Part shown: positions 1-54,438 of the stretch, in pieces | Numbering within the stretch: position 1 is the first letter of the stretch | How the letters are laid out: every line of letters starts with the position of its first letter | NCBI GenBank assembly: GCA_937872895.1 | Contig: CALMUP010000008.1 | Location: forward strand, 225,613-289,612 | DNA length: 64,000 nucleotides | Direction: 5' to 3' | Origin: an uncultured Verrucomicrobiota bacterium | Lineage (GTDB): Bacteria; Verrucomicrobiota; Kiritimatiellia; CAIVKH01 | Made by a program: the position numbers and the translations under genes | Notes under the pieces: model-generated | What the model saw: only the letters and a program-made list of their open reading frames with translations | Databases searched by the model: none | What the model was told of the DNA's origin: nothing

Positions 1-557
1 TTCGTGCCGGTGGCCGGGCCGGTACCGCCGCCGAGCATGGTGGTGATGCCGCTGGTCAGCGCTTCGGTGATCTGCTGGGGGCAGATGAAATGGATGTGGG
101 TGTCGAGGCCGCCCGCCGTGACGATCGCGCCTTCGGCGGCGATGACTTCGGTGGACGCGCCGATGATCATCGGGTTTTTCTTGCCGGTGGCGGGATCCGC
201 GTAGGCCGACCCGATGCCGTTCTGGATGTTCGGGTTTCCGGCGTGGCCGATGCCGGCGATGCGCCCGTGTTTGATGCCGACATCGGCCTTGATGATACCG
301 AGCACCGGATCGAGGACGAGGGCGTTGGTCAGGACGAGGTCGAGGGCCTCGGCGTCGGAGGCGAGGGGCGACTGGCCCATGCCGTCGCGGATGACCTTGC
401 CGCCGCCGAATTTCACTTCATTGCCGTAGCCGCCGCCCTCGGCGATCAGGTCGCGCTCGACCTGGGCGAACAGCTCCGTGTCGGCCAGGCGCACGCGGTC
501 GCCGGTGGTGGGTCCGAACATCTCCGCGTAGGCGCGGCGGGAAAAGCGCATGCTCAT
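1..557 (-). CDS. ureC: Urease alpha subunit, N-terminal portion; the gene continues upstream of the window start. Start ATG (minus strand) at 555-557 overlaps the ureB stop.
   Basis: Reverse-complement translation from 557 reads [37 protein letters not shown]...[14 protein letters not shown], the canonical urease alpha N-terminus. It follows ureA-ureB on the same strand with a 4-bp overlap. Confidence 0.85.
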
Positions 558-3180: not shown

Positions 3181-3885
3181 TCAGGAGTCGGTACCGAGTC
3201 GGCGACGACAGGAGGCGCACCCTAGCCAGGAATGTTTGTTGCGATTCCAACACCAGCCCAGGCGGGGGCGGCCATAGCTGATCCAGATGGAGGGAATGCG
3301 TTGGTCGGCGCGACGGGACCCGGGAAGTTGGAAACAATTGAAGTACCGCTTGTCGGTCAGGATATGGGGGAACTGGACGACCAGCGCCACGCCTTCGTCG
3401 ATGGTCAGGGGCGAGCGGCGTCGGGCTCGGATCATGCGGAGCGCATCTTCGGGACGGATGTCCAGGGTGTCGCGTCCGCTCTCGACCTGTTCCAGCAGGT
3501 ACAGGTCACCAGGCGGGATGGCCATCCGGTTGATCGGGTGGAAATCGGTCGGGACAACGGGATCCATGTTCACGATGCCGGATGCGCCACGAATCGTCAC
3601 AGTGGCCATGGCATCCTCCATCGGCACGGCTTGCTGTTTGACCACGACGACAAACGGGAGACGATCCGGGCGGGCTCGCACCACGAGGTCGCCGAGGCGC
3701 CTCTTGAGCGCACGTGCCTGTCGGCGGAATGAATGAATCGGAAGACTTGTGGTCCCGGTCAACCCAATGCTCTCCAGGTGGGCGATCTGTCGGTCATATT
3801 CAAGTTCCAAGGTCCGGAGCGTAGTTGTCATGATGCGGTGTTTGGTTTCATCTGGTGTGCGGTATGAAATGGACGTTGTATCCAT
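3181..3885 (-). CDS. Hypothetical protein with no recognisable domain, immediately downstream of the HerA-like ATPase gene
   Basis: Long ORF on the same strand as flanking genes. The ORF-track start at 3894 is TTG, so I prefer the ATG at 3883-3885 (MDTTSISY...). I recognise no motif. Confidence 0.45.
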   Translation of the reverse strand: MDTTSISYRTPDETKHRIMTTTLRTLELEYDRQIAHLESIGLTGTTSLPIHSFRRQARALKRRLGDLVVRARPDRLPFVVVVKQQAVPMEDAMATVTIRGASGIVNMDPVVPTDFHPINRMAIPPGDLYLLEQVESGRDTLDIRPEDALRMIRARRRSPLTIDEGVALVVQFPHILTDKRYFNCFQLPGSRRADQRIPSIWISYGRPRLGWCWNRNKHSWLGCASCRRRLGTDS

Positions 3886-9256: not shown

Positions 9257-9330
9257 GCGGGTATAGTTCAATGGTAGAATAGAAGCTTCCCAAGCTTCGG
9301 GCGCGGGTTCGATTCCCGCTACCCGCTCCA
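9257..9330 (+). tRNA. tRNA-Gly (anticodon CCC)
   Basis: GCGGGTATAGTTCAATGGTAGAATAGAAGCTTCCCAAGCTTCGGGCGCGGGTTCGATTCCCGCTACCCGCTCCA. The 7-bp acceptor stem GCGGGTA/TACCCGC, D-loop, anticodon stem GAAGC/GCTTC with loop TTCCCAA, T-arm GCGGGTTCGATTCCCGC and encoded CCA are all present. Confidence 0.85.
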
Positions 9331-28290: not shown

Positions 28291-29483
28291 CACAGCCGGA
28301 CAAACACGGGCATTTCGGTCCGTATGGCGGGATGTATGTCCCGGAAACCCTGATGGCGCCGCTCACCGAGCTGGCCGACCAGTATGCCAAGGCGCGCCGC
28401 GATGCGTCGTTCCGCAAGGAGCTGGCCTATTACCTGCGCCAGTTCGTCGGGCGTCCGACGCCGTTGTACCATGCGGCGCGGTTGTCGAAGGAGCTCGGGT
28501 TCACGTGTTACCTCAAGCGCGAGGACCTGTGCCACACCGGGGCGCACAAGATCAACAACTCGCTCGGGCAGGTTTTGCTGGCGCGGCGGATGGGCAAGAA
28601 GCGCATCATTGCCGAGACCGGGGCGGGGCAGCACGGGGTGGCCACGGCGACGGTGTCGGCGATGTTCGGGCTCGAGTGCGTCATCTACATGGGCAAGGTG
28701 GACATGGAGCGGCAGGCGCTCAACGTGTCGCGCATGCGGCGGCTCGGGGCCACGGTGGTCGCGGTCACGGCCGGGCAGCAGACCTTGAAGGAAGCGATCA
28801 GCGAGGCGATGCGCGACTGGGTCGGCAACGTGGCCTCCACGCACTACATCATCGGCTCGGCGCTGGGGGCGCATCCCTATCCGATGATGGTGCGGGATTT
28901 CCAGAGTGTCATCGGGCGCGAGGCGAGGGCGCAGGTGCTCAAGGCGGCGGGGCGGTTGCCGAACTGGCTGATCGCGTGTGTCGGCGGCGGCAGCAACGCC
29001 ATCGGGTTGTTCCATCCGTTCCTCAAGGACGCCAAGGTCCGCATGATCGGGGTCGAGGCGGGCGGGGAGGGGATCCGGGCGGGCAAGCATGCCGCGCGGT
29101 TCGCGCAGGGCAAGCTCGGCATCCTGCAGGGCACGAAGACCTTTGTGCTGCAGGATCAGCATGGCCAGATCATGCTCACGCATTCGGTCAGCGCGGGATT
29201 GGATTACGCGGCGGTCGGGCCGGAGCACAGCCAGTTGCGCGACCTCGGTCGGGTGGAATACGGGTATGCGACGGATGTGCAGGCGATGGAGGGCGTCAAC
29301 GCGTTGTGCCGGCTGGAGGGGATCCTGCCGGCGCTGGAGACGGCGCATTCGGTCGGGTATCTGTTGCATCACCGCGACCGGTTCAGGAAGAAGGACCTGG
29401 TCATCATCAATTTGTCGGGCCGCGGTGACAAGGATGTTCAGCAGATGGAAGCGTGGGATGCGGAGCGTGGGGGCGCCCGATGA
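28275..29483 (+). CDS. trpB: Tryptophan synthase beta chain
   Basis: [27 protein letters not shown]...HTGAHKINN...GGGSNAIG, canonical TrpB. Start chosen at an internal ATG of the ORF 28089..29483. Overlaps the trpF end by 16 bp. Confidence 0.9.
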
Positions 29484-30364
29484 CGGTGCGTAGCATGACC
29501 GGGTTCGGTCGCGGGCATGCCCAGGCGGATGGACTGCGGGTGGATGTCGAGATCAGCTCGGTCAACCGCAAGCAGCTCGACGTGCTGGTCACGATGCCAC
29601 GGCCGCTCCAGTCGCTCGAGCCGGTGGTGGTCGAGGCGGTGTCCGCTTCGTTGTCGCGCGGGCGGATCCAGGTGGTGGTCACGGTCAAGGCGCTCGCCTC
29701 GCGCGGGGCATCGCCGGTGCAGATCAACACGGCGCTGGCGCGGTCGTGCGTCGCCGAGTTGCGCAAGCTGGCACGGCAGTTGGATCTCGCTCCGGAGATC
29801 AGCATCGGCGAACTGGTGCGGTTGCCGGGGATCATCGACGTGCGTGAGGCCGGGCATGATCCGGAGTCGGTGCAGCCGGTGCTGGTCAAGGCGGTGACCA
29901 AGGCGATCGCGGCGCTCGATGCGATGCGGCAGCGGGAGGGGCGGGCGATGCTTGCCGACCTCAACGGCCGGCTCGCGGGGCTGGAGGGCGCGGTCGGGGT
30001 CATCGCGAAGCGTGCACCGGAGCTGGCGGTGCGGTTCCGCGAGGCGCTGCGGGCGCGGATCCTGGCGGCGGCCACGGGACTTGAGATCGCCGAGGAGCGG
30101 ATCGAGAAGGAGGTCATCCTCTACGCCGACCGGAGCGACATTGCCGAGGAGCTGACCCGGTTGCGCAGTCATTTCGGGCAGGCGCGCGACCTGCTCAAGC
30201 GCCGGGAGCCGGCGGGGCGGGCGCTCGACTTCCTCGCCCAGGAAATTTTCCGCGAGATCAACACCATCGGTTCGAAGGCCGGTGATCCGGTGGTGTCCTC
30301 CCAGGTTGTCACCTTCAAGGCGGAGCTCGAGCGGTTCCGCGAACAAGTGCAGAACATCGAATGA
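29480..30364 (+). CDS. yicC: YicC/YloC family stress-induced protein (DUF1732)
   Basis: [12 protein letters not shown]...[18 protein letters not shown]...[12 protein letters not shown], the YicC signature. The ATG overlaps the trpB stop. Confidence 0.8.
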
Positions 30365-30972
30365 TACACCCGGAACCACGCCCGTTGTTGATTGTCATTT
30401 CCGCGCCGTCCGGCACGGGAAAAACCACCTTGTGCGACCGGCTCATCTCCGAGTTCCGCACGATGAAGTACTCGGTCTCCTGTACCACGCGGCAGCCGCG
30501 TGACGGCGAGATCGACGGGGTCGATTACCATTTCCTCAGCGACGAGGTCTTCCAGCAGAAGGTCAGCCAGGGGGCGTTCCTCGAATACGCACAGGTGCAT
30601 GATCACATGTACGGAACGCTCAAGGATGTGGTGGTCGACAACCTCAAGGCGGGCATTGATGTGCTGATGGATATCGATGTGCAGGGTGCATTGCAGATCC
30701 GCAATGCGATCATGGATGCACCGGACAGTGATCCGCTGCGCCGCGCCTACATCGATGTATTCATCGCGCCACCGTCGATCGAGGTATTGCATGCGCGGCT
30801 AAAGGGACGCGGCAAGGATTCCGACGAGGTGATCGAGCGTCGCATGCAACAGGTCGAGAAGGAACTCGCATGCTGGCGCGACTACCAATACTTCATCATC
30901 AATGATCGACTCGATGCAACCTACGATACGTTGCGTTCCATCATCATCGCCGAACATCACCGCTTCGCGTGA
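30361..30972 (+). CDS. gmk: Guanylate kinase
   Basis: LLIVISAPSGTGKTTL P-loop and GMP-binding motifs (SCTTRQPRDGEIDGVDYHF). Overlaps the yicC stop. Confidence 0.9.
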   Translation: MIHPEPRPLLIVISAPSGTGKTTLCDRLISEFRTMKYSVSCTTRQPRDGEIDGVDYHFLSDEVFQQKVSQGAFLEYAQVHDHMYGTLKDVVVDNLKAGIDVLMDIDVQGALQIRNAIMDAPDSDPLRRAYIDVFIAPPSIEVLHARLKGRGKDSDEVIERRMQQVEKELACWRDYQYFIINDRLDATYDTLRSIIIAEHHRFA

Positions 30973-31368
30973 TCGAGAGGACGAATCACATGTCAAAAAA
31001 ATTTTTCATTTTTTTGCATGTCAATGATTGACGTGTCAGCAAAACATTTTTATTGTGTCATCAAGAAATGAAAGTTGCGTGAATGAAGAACGTGCATCAC
31101 ATCTTGCTTTCGATTTGAGTCACTGAACACGCACACCATGTCATCTTACCATCCATCGTTTGGCTTCAACCGCGAAACAATCCACGCAGACGAGTGTGAC
31201 CGGCTCGACAACCGCGCGATCTTGATGAGTGTCCACTCCAACCCGACGACCGAACGTTCCTCCGAGGCTTTGCACGATCTCGTGCGCTAGCGGATCAAGT
31301 TCACCCGAACGGGTACCCCTGTAGGAAACGAAACGAGAACACCAACGATAGAAGGGAGGGAAAAAGAC

Positions 31369-31458
31369 ATGGCCAAGAAGAAAGCAGCCGCCAAGAAGGC
31401 GCCGGCTAAGAAGAAAGCCCCGGCTAAGAAGAAAGCCGCCGCTAAAGCCAAGAAGTAA
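31369..31458 (+). CDS. 29-aa Lys/Ala-rich small basic peptide (MAKKKAAAKKAPAKKKAPAKKKAAAKAKK), histone H1-like tail composition
   Basis: Strong SD GAAGGGAGGG 8 bp upstream of the ATG, followed by a clear hairpin terminator. Sits behind a sharply AT-rich region. Too short for the ORF track. Confidence 0.45.
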   Translation: MAKKKAAAKKAPAKKKAPAKKKAAAKAKK

Positions 31459-31499
31459 GCCGTATTCCCGTACGGTTGACGTTCCCTCGTGGAGCGTCC

Positions 31500-31555
31500 A
31501 ATAAATGACGGTCAGAGACGCCCAACGTCGATGACCGTCATTTGTTATTTATACC
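31500..31555 (+). terminator. Rho-independent terminator-like hairpin (AAATGACGGTCA, loop, TGACCGTCATTT, then T-rich tail)
   Basis: A 12-bp perfect inverted repeat followed by gttatttat, directly downstream of the KA-peptide ORF. Confidence 0.5.
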
Positions 31556-31677
31556 CATAAACCAGGCTGTTGGGCACCGGCAACCACTTTTCCGGACAAC
31601 TTGACAGCACCACGAAATATGGGCTAAAGGGTAGTCATGGCGCCTACATATGGTAGCAGGATCGGAGGGCAGGCCGG

Positions 31678-32133
31678 ATGAGATGTCCCAAATGTGCCCA
31701 CCTGGATGACAAGGTGATCGACAGCCGTTCGGTCCGCAACGGCGATGTCATCCGGCGCCGCCGGGTTTGCCTGCAATGCGGGTTCCGTTTTACCACCTAC
31801 GAGGAGGTCATCAAGACCAGCTTGCGGGTGATCAAGCGCGACGGGCGGCACGAGGAGTTGGACCGGCGCAAGTTGATGAACGGGATTGAGCGGGCGTGCG
31901 AGAAGCGGCCGATCAGTGCGCAACAGATCGAGTCGATCGTGGATACGATTCTGGCCGAGTTGGAGAGCGAGTTTGAGCGCGAGGTGTCGAGCACGGTGAT
32001 TGGCCAGAAGGTGATGGATCAACTGGAGGAGCTCGACGAGGTTGCGTATGTCCGGTTCGCTTCGGTGTATCGTCGGTTCCGCGACGTGAACCAGTTTCTC
32101 AGTGAAGTCGAAGGGTTGATTGGTCGGGAGTAG
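31678..32133 (+). CDS. nrdR: Transcriptional repressor NrdR
   Basis: MRCPKCAHLDDKVIDSRSVRNGDVIRRRRVCLQCGFRFTTYEEV is the NrdR zinc ribbon, and an ATP-cone follows. Confidence 0.9.
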   Translation: MRCPKCAHLDDKVIDSRSVRNGDVIRRRRVCLQCGFRFTTYEEVIKTSLRVIKRDGRHEELDRRKLMNGIERACEKRPISAQQIESIVDTILAELESEFEREVSSTVIGQKVMDQLEELDEVAYVRFASVYRRFRDVNQFLSEVEGLIGRE

Positions 32134-32895: not shown

Positions 32896-33051
32896 ATGAG
32901 CATGCATTCCAGTTTCAAGTCGTCGTCGAAAATCGCGGTCAAGCGCAATGTCCTCAAGCGGTACGAGCGCATCAACCTGATGCTCAAGCGCGGCACGTGG
33001 AAGTCGGGTGACCGGGCCTTGGGTATTCCCAAGACCAAGCAGGACGCCTGA
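32896..33051 (+). CDS. Small basic protein (51 aa; MSMHSSFKSSSKIAVKRNVLKRYERINLMLKRGTWKSGDRALGIPKTKQDA)
   Basis: An internal ATG of ORF 32662..33051 with GGAG upstream. Lys/Arg-rich. Followed by a textbook terminator. Resembles the small basic protein family seen in PVC-group bacteria, assigned from memory only. Confidence 0.5.
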   Translation: MSMHSSFKSSSKIAVKRNVLKRYERINLMLKRGTWKSGDRALGIPKTKQDA

Positions 33052-44557: not shown

Positions 44558-45028
44558 TTAGTTCGCCTGGATGGCGATGCGTTTGCTCTTGGACGATTCG
44601 CGGCGCGGGAATTTCACCCGCAGCACGCCGTGTTCGTAACGGGCGTTCACCTGGTCCGGCTCCACCGCGTAGGGCAGTTGAACGGTGCGGCTGAACGAGC
44701 CAAAGGCCCGCTCCTGGCGGTGCGCCGTATCCTGCTCGGCGGTGTAGGGATCCTTGCGGGTGCCGGTGATGGTCACGATGTCGTCGGCGACGGTCAGTTC
44801 GAAGTCGTTCTGATCGACGCCCGGCATCTCCATCTCCAGGTAGGCCTCGTTCTCGTTGCTCCAGAAATTCATGGACGGATAATCCGTACCGCGCCCATGA
44901 ACATCCCGGAACACCCGGTTCACGTGCCGCTCGAGCTGACGCAGCTCGGCAAAGGGGTCAAACCCCCAATCCCATCGATTCCACATAGGTCTGATCATGA
45001 CGTTCTCTCCTTTCATTGGTTGTTCCAT
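44558..45028 (-). CDS. Hsp20/alpha-crystallin family small heat shock protein (3 of 3)
   Basis: YLEMEMPGVDQNDFELTVADDIVTITGTRK...GVLRVKFPRR. Confidence 0.8.
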   Translation of the reverse strand: MEQPMKGENVMIRPMWNRWDWGFDPFAELRQLERHVNRVFRDVHGRGTDYPSMNFWSNENEAYLEMEMPGVDQNDFELTVADDIVTITGTRKDPYTAEQDTAHRQERAFGSFSRTVQLPYAVEPDQVNARYEHGVLRVKFPRRESSKSKRIAIQAN

Positions 45029-45232
45029 GTTCCATCATAGGTAAAGCATTAGGCATGCCAATCGGGGGTATATTTCGTAAACATTTGCATATCAAAAACA
45101 AATGAATGTGTTGCGATGCCTTGAGTGTGGCATAATGGCTCAATGGTATCGCGGCGATGTGTCATGGAGGGTAATATTGGCACGGTTTCTCTGCCATTGA
45201 ACCATATGGCTCATCCTGCTAGCCTGTTCGCC

Positions 45233-52710: not shown

Positions 52711-53091
52711 TCATGTCTTGGCTACGCAATCGCGGCAGCGTCCGTACAGGAAAATTTCGTGGGTCTCCACCTTGAACCCATCCGGGGCCAATGCACTCAG
52801 TGAACCCGGACAGCCTTCCATCTCGTAGGCCTTGTGGCAGGTTCGGCAGATGAAATGATGGTGGTGCGTCTTGCCGGCCATCTCGTAGCGGTCAGGTTCG
52901 CCGGGAACCGGAACGGGCAACAACAAGCCACTCTCCACAAACGATTTGATGTTCCGGTAAACCGTGGCGATGCCCAGGTCAGGAATGCGCTGCTTGGTCA
53001 GATCAAGCACCTCGTTCGGTGTCAGTGGTCCGGCGGACTCACGGAACGTTTCCAGAATACTCTCTCGCTGCCTTGTCTTTCGTTCGATCAT
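52711..53091 (-). CDS. zur: Fur family transcriptional regulator (probably the zinc uptake regulator Zur, given its neighbours)
   Basis: MIERKTRQRESILETFRESAGPLTPNEV...HHHHFICRTCHKAYEME...GRCRDC are Fur-family DNA-binding and metal-site motifs. Divergent from a COG0523/L33/L31B cluster. Confidence 0.85.
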   Translation of the reverse strand: MIERKTRQRESILETFRESAGPLTPNEVLDLTKQRIPDLGIATVYRNIKSFVESGLLLPVPVPGEPDRYEMAGKTHHHHFICRTCHKAYEMEGCPGSLSALAPDGFKVETHEIFLYGRCRDCVAKT

Positions 53092-53124
53092 GAAATGCCC
53101 TTGACAATAAACGATAATGATATA

Positions 53125-53155
53125 TCAATAGCGATCGTTCATTCTTGTTGATGCG
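53125..53155. promoter_or_regulatory. Candidate Fur/Zur box in the zur-COG0523 divergent intergenic region (ACGATAATGATATATCAATAGCGATCGT, containing the perfect palindrome TGATATATCA)
   Basis: AT-rich dyad resembling GATAATGATAATCATTATC in an otherwise GC-rich genome, placed between the regulator and its likely regulon. Confidence 0.4.
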
Positions 53156-53214
53156 TATTATCAAAAGATTACTGAGGAAAGTCGATGGTGATTTTCCCGA
53201 AGGAGCAAGGTTTC

Positions 53215-54438
53215 ATGGCAGCGCAACAAGCGGTTCCCGTTACGGTATTATCCGGTTTTCTCGGAGCAGGGAAAACCACGTTGTTGAATCACGTCCTGTC
53301 CAATCGTCAGGGCCGCCGCGTGGCGGTAATCGTGAACGACATGAGCGAGGTGAATGTGGATGCCCGTCTGGTCCGTGACGGGGCCGCCGCGCTGAGCCGC
53401 GTTGACGAGAAGGTCGTGGAGATGACCAACGGGTGCATCTGCTGCACCTTGCGTGAGGACCTGCTGCGCGAAGTGACGCGCCTGGCGGGAGAGGGCCGGT
53501 TCGATACCATCCTGATCGAATCTACCGGGATCGCCGAGCCGATGCCGGTGGCCGAGACCTTCTCTTTTGCCGATGAACAGGGACGTCGCCTGCACGACGT
53601 GGCCCGCCTCGATACCCTGGTCACGGTTGTGGATGCCAGCTCGTTCCCGGTGGATCTGCTGACCCAGGAAACCTTGAACGATCGCAACCTGGGCATGGAT
53701 GAACAGGATGACCGGCCGATCTCGATGTTGCTGATGGATCAGGTGGAATTTGCAAACGTGCTGGTCCTGAACAAGGCCGATCTGGTCAGCGAGGAGGAAC
53801 TTGCCCAGGTCGAGCGTTTCCTTGCCCGGGTGAATCCGGATGCCCGGGTGGTGCGCAGCGTGCGTGGTCAGGTGGATTTGTCCCTGGTGTTCGATACCGG
53901 CCTGTTCGACCTCGACAAGGCGATGGGTTCGCCGCTATGGGAGCCGGAGCCGCGGTTTGAGCGTCAACCGGAAACCGAGGAATACGGCATCCGCTCGTTT
54001 GTGTACCGCGCCCGCCGACCGTTCCATCCGCAACGTTTCATGCAATTCCTGCAGGATCGCGGATTTCGCAACGTGCTTCGCTCCAAGGGAGTGATCTGGC
54101 TGGCCAGCCGCGGCGAGATGGCCGGGGTCTGGCAGATGGCCGGCAACAACTGCCAGCTCGATCCGGGTGGCCTCTGGTATGCCGTGCTGCCGAAATCCGA
54201 GTGGCCGGAGGAGCCGGAGGATCTCCAGCGGCTGATGGATTCATGGCAGGAGGGTGTCGGTGACCGGCGGCAGGAGCTGGTGGTCATCGGCATCGGCATC
54301 GATGTCGAGGCGATCACGGCCGGACTGAATGCCTGCCTCTTGTCCGATGCGGAAATGCGGGCCGGCGATGCCGTATGGGCGAAATACCAGGATCCCTTTC
54401 CGGCCTGGCCCATGATCGAATCGATTCGAGGAGCCTGA
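53215..54438 (+). CDS. COG0523 family GTPase (CobW/YeiR/ZigA-type zinc metallochaperone)
   Basis: [23 protein letters not shown]-loop, [12 protein letters not shown] CxCC metal motif and a C-terminal CobW_C domain. Start at the ATG after AAGGAGC. Confidence 0.85.

Follow-up and report, generated by a model that had tools for sequence, protein, structure and literature searches.

We analysed a 64,000-nt stretch of a contig (CALMUP010000008.1) from an uncultured bacterium of the Kiritimatiellia, phylum Verrucomicrobiota (hereafter, the window), focusing on the 705-nt gap between the gmk and nrdR genes. Within this gap lies a 29-codon open reading frame (ORF) for a peptide that, apart from its initial Met, consists only of Lys, Ala and Pro, evolves under selection at the protein level and is flanked by conserved promoter and terminator signals; we refer to it as the K/A micro-gene. 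A previous sequence-only reading had pointed to a strong Shine-Dalgarno (SD) motif, a 29-aa ORF and a following hairpin terminator in this region, and all three are present there. In the window, rpoZ is absent between gmk and nrdR. The features of the locus are the following:

29453-30364, yicC, upstream of gmk
30361-30972, gmk, followed by the 705-nt gap
30988-31027 (+), UP-element-like A/T tract, the 40 nt preceding the -35 box being 78% A+T
31028-31033 (+), -35 hexamer TTGACG, from the promoter scan
31051-31056 (+), -10 hexamer TATTGT, separated from the -35 hexamer by a 17-nt spacer
31063-31368 (+), predicted 5' leader, ~306 nt
~31135-31168 (+), pyrimidine-rich 5' arm (anti-SD/anti-AUG) of a predicted helix (inverted repeats I2 and I3; minimum free energy (MFE) and centroid structures)
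31138-31290 (+), leader ORF of 50 aa, annotated as a gene by some pipelines, with its start codon inside the 5' arm
~31336-31373 (+), A/C- and purine-rich 3' arm of the predicted helix, complementary to the 5' arm and covering the SD and start codon
31354-31360 (+), SD motif GGGAGGG, 8 nt upstream of the start codon (ATG, 31369)
31369-31458 (+), K/A micro-gene encoding MAKKKAAAKKAPAKKKAPAKKKAAAKAKK, 29 aa, ~3 kDa, net charge ~+14
31458-31477 and 31478-31498 (+), two hairpins of the 3' untranslated region (UTR), directly after the stop codon
31500-31556 (+), predicted intrinsic terminator: a 15-bp outer stem and a small inner hairpin, then UUUGUUAUUUAU
31678-32133 (+), nrdR, ~220 nt downstream of the K/A ORF

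A lysine/alanine micro-gene upstream of nrdR

The encoded peptide comprises 14 Lys, 12 Ala, 2 Pro and 1 Met, arranged in AKKKAP repeats, and its gene is the only K/A ORF in the 64-kb window. For comparison, we used a set of 85 loci around nrdR, which were scanned for small K/A/P-rich ORFs. Copies of the window locus, with an identical NrdR protein, are found in the metagenome-assembled genome (MAG) GCA_035324595.1 and in several metagenome contigs, and the NrdR relatives from species-representative genomes are almost all labelled as Kiritimatiellia, Verrucomicrobiota or Planctomycetes-Verrucomicrobia-Chlamydiae (PVC) MAGs. In 39 of the 85 loci, nrdR is preceded, at a distance of 110-330 nt, by a K/A-rich ORF of 17-96 aa. 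Beyond these, one locus (L039) contains a K/A ORF interrupted by Ns, and another (L072) has it directly after gmk, 1.9 kb from nrdR. The ORFs of this family start with MAKKK, MAAKKK or MPAKKK and end with KKKK or AKK, and the motif GGGAGGG, AGGAGGG or GGGGGG stands at the place of the SD in essentially all of them.

The substitution pattern is that of a protein-coding gene. All 4 substitutions that separate the window ORF from its closest relatives are synonymous, and single pairwise nucleotide alignments yield counts of 0/0/9, 0/0/10, 0/0/9 and 0/0/7 substitutions at the first, second and third codon positions, with all indels being multiples of three. Across ten phylogenetically separate pairs, the substitutions are distributed 18/18/86 by codon position, i.e., 86 of 122 fall at the third (binomial p=6e-17); in the same pairs, 70 codon differences are synonymous versus 24 nonsynonymous, and every change in length is in frame. 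The reading frame is thus kept in relatives while the nucleotides change, the outcome on which the sequence-only reading had staked its case. Given purifying selection at the amino acid level, conservation of the frame and an SD at the proper spacing, the ORF qualifies, by sequence, as a protein-coding gene, and we consider it very likely that this is a real, independent micro-gene. The suggestion that it had escaped annotation is accurate for the NCBI copy of the locus, in which no gene is present at this position, but not for the gene calls of ENA, JGI and Logan, which list a family-less 29-aa product.

The region had alternatively been read as encoding only a small RNA (sRNA), a possibility that the excess of third-position substitutions contradicts. 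In its general form, this explanation holds that a non-coding or dual-function structured RNA is the functional product and the ORF is incidental. Strong structure is indeed apparent both in the transcript (z = -3.55 for the fold of 31060-31560) and in the 3' UTR (z = -8.6 versus shuffles), and the stem of the terminator is conserved in sequence. Yet the third-position pattern, the synonymous changes and the in-frame indels betray selection on the peptide, the strong, correctly spaced SD is conserved, and the leader is poorly conserved in sequence. Nor is there an Rfam match: a search in E-value mode over 30700-31900 gave chance-level best matches (E 0.8-6; 8-20 bits versus the 40-90 required), and in gathering mode over the whole window nothing in the region, be it riboswitch, sRNA or thermometer, reached the threshold. 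We therefore regard an RNA as the sole functional product as barely credible; an additional function at the RNA level, beside the peptide, may exist.

Promoter, terminator and the adjacent nrdR gene

In the sequence-only reading, the sequence upstream of the micro-gene was portrayed as an AT-rich island in a genome of roughly 65% GC and interpreted as a promoter plus operator. The island is where it was described: GC content is 0.34 across 31000-31130, lower than in any other 130-nt island of the window (0.05th percentile), but the background is the window mean of 0.62 rather than ~65%. The promoter component of the interpretation has fared well. A promoter scan detected TTGACG-17-TATTGT as the sole sigma-70-like site in the region, and no antisense promoter. 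In an alignment of 18 relatives, the flanks diverge fast, TTGAC and TAT..T are nearly invariant, and the upstream A/T tract persists, at the same position as in the window. Of 34 family loci, 24 show the pattern TTGAC(G/T)-17-TA...T, invariably with a 17-nt spacer and with A/T-rich sequence upstream. By comparison, TTGACN-17-TATNNT occurs twice in the 64-kb window, with AT-rich sequence upstream only at the TTGACG-17-TATTGT copy. The hexamers, their spacing, the conservation and the A/T tract jointly qualify the site as a putative sigma-70-type promoter with an UP-like element, and the AT-rich island exists because this promoter, with its upstream A/T tract, is located there. The tract would act as an UP element, and transcription is predicted to start near 31063.

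The operator component did not withstand comparison. The motifs on which it was built are all present in the island as described, namely, CATGTCA at 30989 and 31017, TGACGTGTCA at 31029, TGTGTCATC at 31054 and the palindrome TCAATGATTGA at 31021, and TGTCA is concentrated there, with 4 copies within 146 nt of the island versus 41 on the plus strand of the entire 64 kb. In addition, a 19-bp imperfect palindrome, CATGTCAAT-G-ATTGACGTG (31017-31035), overlaps the -35 box, and the UP-like tract holds both CATGTCA copies and the left half of this palindrome. In the nearest relative (L007), however, only the two upstream TGTCA copies survive and the other two are lost, whereas none is found in more distant family members; the 19-bp palindrome is kept only in the closest clade, although its half-site TCRATGRTTGAC recurs more widely. 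As the TGTCA copies disappear beyond the closest clade, an operator is unsupported there, and we rejected the repeats and palindrome as a conserved operator. TGTCAA being the reverse complement of TTGACA, a divergent minus-strand promoter formed by inverted TTGACA copies was considered as well and was rejected given that no acceptable -10 box accompanies them. The next-lowest GC islands of the window are 53032-53243 (0.36) and 44966-45198 (0.38), of which the former, with TTGACAATAAACGATAATGATATATCAATAG, may also be a promoter/operator region.

At the other end of the unit, all family members carry one or two hairpins past the stop codon, followed by a long hairpin and a U-tract. The two short hairpins of the window recur at equivalent positions in relatives with changed stem sequences, and the final hairpin (31500-31546) leads into a U-rich tail. 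Each locus has a single copy of the sequence at the base of the terminator stem, AATGRCGR...YCGYCATT, always past the K/A ORF and 42-61 nt from its stop codon; the 668 kb of the locus set that was scanned for this motif contain no further copies, and in the window it is likewise not a general repeat. Hence, we rejected the possibility that it is a genome-wide repeat akin to an uptake sequence. RNAalifold recovered from 24 sequences a 14-bp consensus terminator stem with compensatory changes at 8 of the 14 pairs. With a stem-loop, a U-tract and covariation, the element can be classified as an intrinsic (Rho-independent) terminator, as judged from sequence features.

Downstream of the terminator, nrdR appears to have a promoter of its own, with TTGACA at 31602 overlapped by two NrdR-box-like palindromes, CCACGAAATATGGG and CCTACATATGGTAG (31602-31660). 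Relatives show clearer NrdR boxes at the equivalent site (e.g., CCCCAATATATGGGG in L037 and CTACTATATGTTGCGTGGTAG in L027), which suggests that nrdR regulates itself. The same TTGAC promoter with NrdR-box-like palindromes is also found in loci that lack the K/A unit. Thus, because nrdR starts from its own promoter even where the K/A unit is missing, the latter is autonomous and is not a leader of nrdR.

This arrangement bears directly on the possibility that the ORF is a regulatory leader peptide, such that the progress of the ribosome over the Lys and Ala codons decides whether the terminator forms and, hence, whether nrdR is transcribed. The geometry invites such a model, as the ORF precedes nrdR by ~220 nt, on its strand and in a conserved position, with a terminator in between. 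But nrdR has the promoter described above, downstream of that terminator; one or two independent hairpins intervene before the terminator, which begins 42-61 nt past the stop codon, and no antiterminator pairing was seen; the ORF varies from 17 to 96 aa; the unit of L072 is 1.9 kb away from nrdR; and units of the same layout are found beside unrelated genes in other lineages. Given the independent hairpins, the separate nrdR promoter and the position of the L072 unit, we rejected classification as a leader-peptide attenuator, and consider this explanation very improbable.

Several other features of the neighborhood can be noted. In L027, positions 3440-3800, upstream of nrdR, contain three direct repeats of ~128 nt that look like small repetitive palindromic elements; within each are CCCGCGGGCGGAAACGCCCGGG and the inverted repeat GGTCATTG.GGACAATGACC. 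Two genes downstream in the window, a 51-aa ORF, MSMHSSFKSSSKIAVKRNVLKRYERINLMLKRGTWKSGDRALGIPKTKQDA (32896-33051, plus strand), is a second gene for a small basic protein, matching NCBIfam TIGR04137 'small basic protein' (Chlam_Ver_rRNA) with 81.7 bits. Positions 62-393 (plus strand) match the Rfam family 5_ureB_sRNA with 86 bits; as this family is antisense to ureB in Helicobacter, the match probably marks the coding region of a urease beta subunit and not an sRNA. The sole tRNA of the window is tRNA-Gly(CCC) at 9257-9330 (plus strand).

A predicted helix between the leader and the ribosome-binding site

The predicted leader of the window transcript is matched in length in most relatives (240-350 nt), and its middle is poorly conserved and evolves fast. 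Pairing between its pyrimidine-rich 5' arm (31136-31167) and the complementary 3' arm (31337-31372) that covers the SD and start codon is present in both the MFE and the centroid structures of the window. The arms are colinear in 13 loci, which represent three subclades: a stretch rich in pyrimidines between +57 and +113 pairs with the region from -36 to +8 around the AUG, with duplex energies between -19.5 and -34.4 kcal/mol. From six full leaders, RNAalifold recovered the helix, in which the changes are only conserved or one-sided. When the arms were swapped among loci, each paired better with its own partner (-26.4 kcal/mol) than with those of other loci (-24.3 kcal/mol; permutation p=0.014). 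At the level of the structure ensemble, partners located more than 100 nt upstream account for over half of the SD-AUG pairing in 16 of the 24 transcripts and for 61% of it in the window.

Other results count against gating of translation by this helix. The anti-SD duplexes are no better than dinucleotide shuffles (mean z = -0.64); the unpaired probability of the SD region, 0.39, is inside the range of ordinary genes of the window (0.23-0.53); and two family members have leaders of only 108-121 nt, so that the long-range helix is not universal. Because the shuffle test is not significant, the support for SD sequestration comes down to positional consistency, the swap test and RNAalifold. We consider sequestration of the SD by the predicted helix to be moderately supported, whereas the odds that the helix actually controls translation are close to even, perhaps slightly below.

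The 50-aa ORF that begins inside the 5' arm was assessed as a second gene and rejected. Its substitutions are flat across codon positions (8/10/10, 6/12/8 and 18/21/19) and it has no SD; hence, its product is unlikely to be a conserved protein. In 12 relatives, a frame of 42-61 aa nevertheless stays open at a similar position of the leader, which may stem from the pyrimidine-rich composition. Separately, in one subclade (L008, L009, L010, L015, L016 and L017), the leader opens with an ORF of 18-20 aa (+11 to +75) that is conserved in length (MMTAKRQIRV..., MVSAKKQFIV..., MVSTQQKIFD...) and stops at the beginning of the next open frame; in the window clade, the counterparts are shorter (MKNVHHILLSI).

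A free-standing polycation, its possible partners and its known analogues

By composition, the product of the micro-gene belongs with the bacterial histone H1-like, K/A/P-repeat polycations, which is a functional kind and not a homology family. Database searches, run in Pfam and NCBIfam with the peptide and four relatives, did not place it further, and the short forms matched nothing there. MAKKKAAAKKAPAKKKAPAKKKAAAKAKK had no match in Pfam, with HC2 not matching even at E<=10, in NCBIfam or, by sequence search, in the PDB. Among its longer relatives, the 96-aa one scores 27.3 bits, the best among the relatives, against Pfam PF07382 HC2 (threshold 40) and 18.2 bits against NCBIfam NF038052 Hc2 (threshold 135), whereas the best relative reaches 26 bits of the 80 required by NCBIfam NF038053 (hist_H1_lk_Burk), to which MAKKKAAAKKAPAKKKAPAKKKAAAKAKK itself has no match. 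None of these values signifies membership, and the sub-threshold scores of the 67- and 96-aa relatives are compositional matches. Five peptides of the family were absent from a 15-billion-sequence protein collection in an exact look-up. A homologue search started from the 42-aa relative in L012 returned only proteins of 65-74 aa in which a non-repeat N-terminal domain precedes AKKAPAKKV repeats; given this extra domain, we rejected them as members of the same family. A literature search for K/A micro-peptides, including the string MAKKKAAKK, found nothing. We further rejected a eukaryotic-type linker histone H1, since 29 aa of K, A and P leave no room for a winged-helix domain and there is no Pfam match, and a type I toxin, since the peptide is not hydrophobic and no antisense promoter was found.

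Taking these lines of evidence together, we propose, with a probability of roughly 60%, that 30988-31556 is a self-contained transcription unit for a translated polycation whose synthesis is gated by the leader. Under this proposal, the sigma-70-type promoter TTGACG-17-TATTGT and its A/T tract would drive a ~490-nt transcript from near 31063, comprising, in this order, a structured leader of ~300 nt, a very strong SD, a translated 29-codon ORF, two hairpins and the intrinsic terminator, and expression would be high. The product, a 3-kDa Lys/Ala/Pro peptide with a charge of ~+14, would resemble a stand-alone fragment of the C-terminal tail of H1, would presumably be disordered, and would bind cellular polyanions electrostatically, without sequence specificity. 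The first candidate target would be nucleoid DNA, through charge neutralisation and compaction of the kind attributed to H1 tails, chlamydial Hc2 and Coxiella ScvA. A pyrimidine-rich segment ~75-105 nt into the leader would pair with the SD and AUG and so gate, post-transcriptionally, the translation of a potentially harmful polycation.

The components of this scenario are not equally firm. Judged by its composition only, the peptide is likely a polycation that binds DNA, RNA or another polyanion; that DNA, in the form of the nucleoid, is the main target is possible, with the odds falling somewhat short of even. Of the attributes proposed in the sequence-only reading, high expression and association with the nucleoid go back solely to the strength of the signals and the amino acid composition. 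The resemblance to a free H1-type tail is drawn from composition, and, the sequence being of low complexity, homology to any characterised protein is not demonstrable, nor is membership in the H1-like families. The range of lengths, 17-96 aa, fits unspecific binding and gives no clue to the target. Both points temper the scenario.

Should the partner be RNA, the peptide could be a tiny basic protein, specific to the lineage, that is part of the ribosome or bound to it, or an RNA-binding polycation that modulates translation like PhaF. The mycobacterial ribosomal proteins bS22 and bL37 are of a size comparable to that of the 29-aa peptide. A strong promoter, a strong SD and stabilising 3' structure are typical of very highly expressed small genes, and the unusually structured mRNA of the micro-gene would permit autoregulatory binding; moreover, the C-terminal KPAA region of PhaF binds RNA and, on its own, binds specific mRNAs and activates their translation (PMC12818456). 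However, the peptide varies from 17 to 96 aa by gain and loss of repeats, unlike ribosomal proteins, which occupy a fixed site; it contains neither Arg nor aromatic residues; no ribosomal protein or PDB entry was matched in Pfam, NCBIfam and the PDB; and there is no link to a ribosomal operon, the neighbors being gmk and nrdR. We consider a dedicated role in RNA or ribosome binding rather unlikely. Less probable by far is a partner among other polyanions, such as polyphosphate (polyP) granules or anionic polymers of the envelope. The precedent is AlgP, a K/P/A-repeat protein that localises to polyP granules and spaces them (PMC9239181; discussed in PMC11894788), but the conserved neighborhood of the micro-gene contains no genes of polyP metabolism, and the peptide, in which the only hydrophobic residues are Met1 and Ala, has no signal peptide or hydrophobic segment that would allow export.

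The proposed polycation might not be confined to the Kiritimatiellia. A metagenome scan for DNA encoding MAKKKAAKK yielded at least 120 stretches, and the following figures hold among the 122 matches listed. At least 82 are complete K-rich ORFs of up to 70 aa, representing at least 60 distinct peptides; at least 75 are preceded by an SD-like motif, and at least 45 are followed within 160 nt by a terminator-like hairpin. SD-led K/A micro-ORFs of 11-50 aa are thus common in metagenomes (contigs L086-L205; e.g., L141:2079-2129(-), L119:6834-6872(-) and L140:3193-3339(-)), and lineage groups repeat the layout of a TTGAC box, SD, micro-ORF, conserved hairpin and terminator, although the Kiritimatiellia terminator motif is present in none of the listed units. 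The genomic contexts include yicC-gmk-x-coaBC-[K/A]-IMPase; AbiEi-like-[two tandem K-rich micro-ORFs]-recG, in one lineage, where the tandem pair is followed by the conserved hairpin GGTGGGGGGTGGCGGCCTCCCACC; a convergent arrangement with an nrdR homologue; and a position upstream of a recA-like gene. K/A micro-ORFs are thus found near genes of DNA and nucleotide metabolism in the window (gmk and nrdR) and in L107, L121, L141, L145 and L178, a recurrence that could reflect old synteny of the gmk-rpoZ-coaBC/recG neighborhood or coincidence. In at least 20 listed matches, the ORF exceeds 100 aa, and the motif forms the N-terminal end of a larger product; some of the large ORFs encode ordinary proteins with an N-terminal MAKKKAAKK... 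tail, as in L164:10096 (+), where a GroES-like sequence follows MAKKKAAKKAKKGG.

Low-complexity sequences of this kind cannot separate shared ancestry from convergence. A speculative, rather doubtful extension is that SD-led micro-ORFs of only Lys and Ala (or also Pro, Val and Thr), of 11 to ~100 aa, form a widespread 'micro-H1' class of polycations that annotation has all but overlooked, each with its own promoter, hairpin and terminator, some in tandem, in several bacterial lineages and beside gmk, nrdR, recG, recA-like and coaBC genes, which in PVC bacteria could serve as a missing factor of nucleoid charge neutralisation and compaction under control of an SD-sequestering leader. Gene callers, family databases and tryptic proteomics do not reach down to peptides so short and of such low complexity, so that a whole class of abundant polycations could stay invisible in bacterial genomes. 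Comparative genomics identifies here one such K/A ORF under protein-level selection, with dedicated, conserved expression signals, and look-alike units occur in other environmental lineages; the window unit may exemplify a broader, unannotated class. Binding to the nucleoid or to RNA, if it occurs, would place such peptides among the smallest known proteins dedicated to binding nucleic acids, and they would constitute a new element in bacterial chromatin and RNA biology.

Among known systems, that of type I toxins is comparable at the level of mRNA architecture only. The hok and tisB mRNAs have long-range 5' structures that sequester the SD; as predicted for the micro-gene transcript, a tiny ORF follows a long structured leader, in which a segment far upstream pairs with the ribosome-binding site. 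They differ in that the window peptide is wholly hydrophilic and not a membrane toxin, and neither an antisense RNA nor a processing site was identified. ScvA of Coxiella burnetii is a peptide of ~30 aa, rich in Arg and Gln. Found in the condensed small-cell variant, it is a precedent for a very basic bacterial peptide acting on DNA (PMC4766238), and Hq1 of the same bacterium is likewise a small basic DNA-binding protein (PMC4766238). ScvA has a different composition and no sequence similarity to the window peptide, comes from a different phylum and is developmentally regulated.

Chlamydial Hc2 (HctB) shares with the window peptide its origin in the PVC superphylum and its Lys/Ala-rich, low-complexity repeats of variable extent, the length of Hc2 differing between strains and species through the number of repeats (PMC2848022). 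By contrast with the 29-aa K/A/P peptide, Hc2, which binds DNA, has 165-237 aa and contains Arg and other residues. For the histone-like Hc1, translation is under post-transcriptional repression (PMC3469542), a parallel to the leader that is predicted here to sequester the SD. The difference is that Hc1 is controlled by a trans-acting sRNA, whereas a long-range helix in cis is predicted here. The KPAA regions of AlgP and PhaF and the C-terminal tail of H1 resemble the window peptide in their K/A/P composition and in short repeats of variable number (here, AKKAPAKKK), and bind DNA, RNA or polyP granules via their lysines (PMC12818456, PMC9239181). The repeat unit of the window peptide is not the KPAA of AlgP and PhaF. 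Furthermore, in AlgP, PhaF and H1, the repeats are tails appended to the AlgP N-terminus, a phasin domain and a winged helix, respectively, whereas here the repeat is the whole protein. What is new relative to the known H1-like polycations is, then, a conserved micro-gene that stands alone, belongs to no described family, has largely been missed by annotation and is equipped with its own signals.

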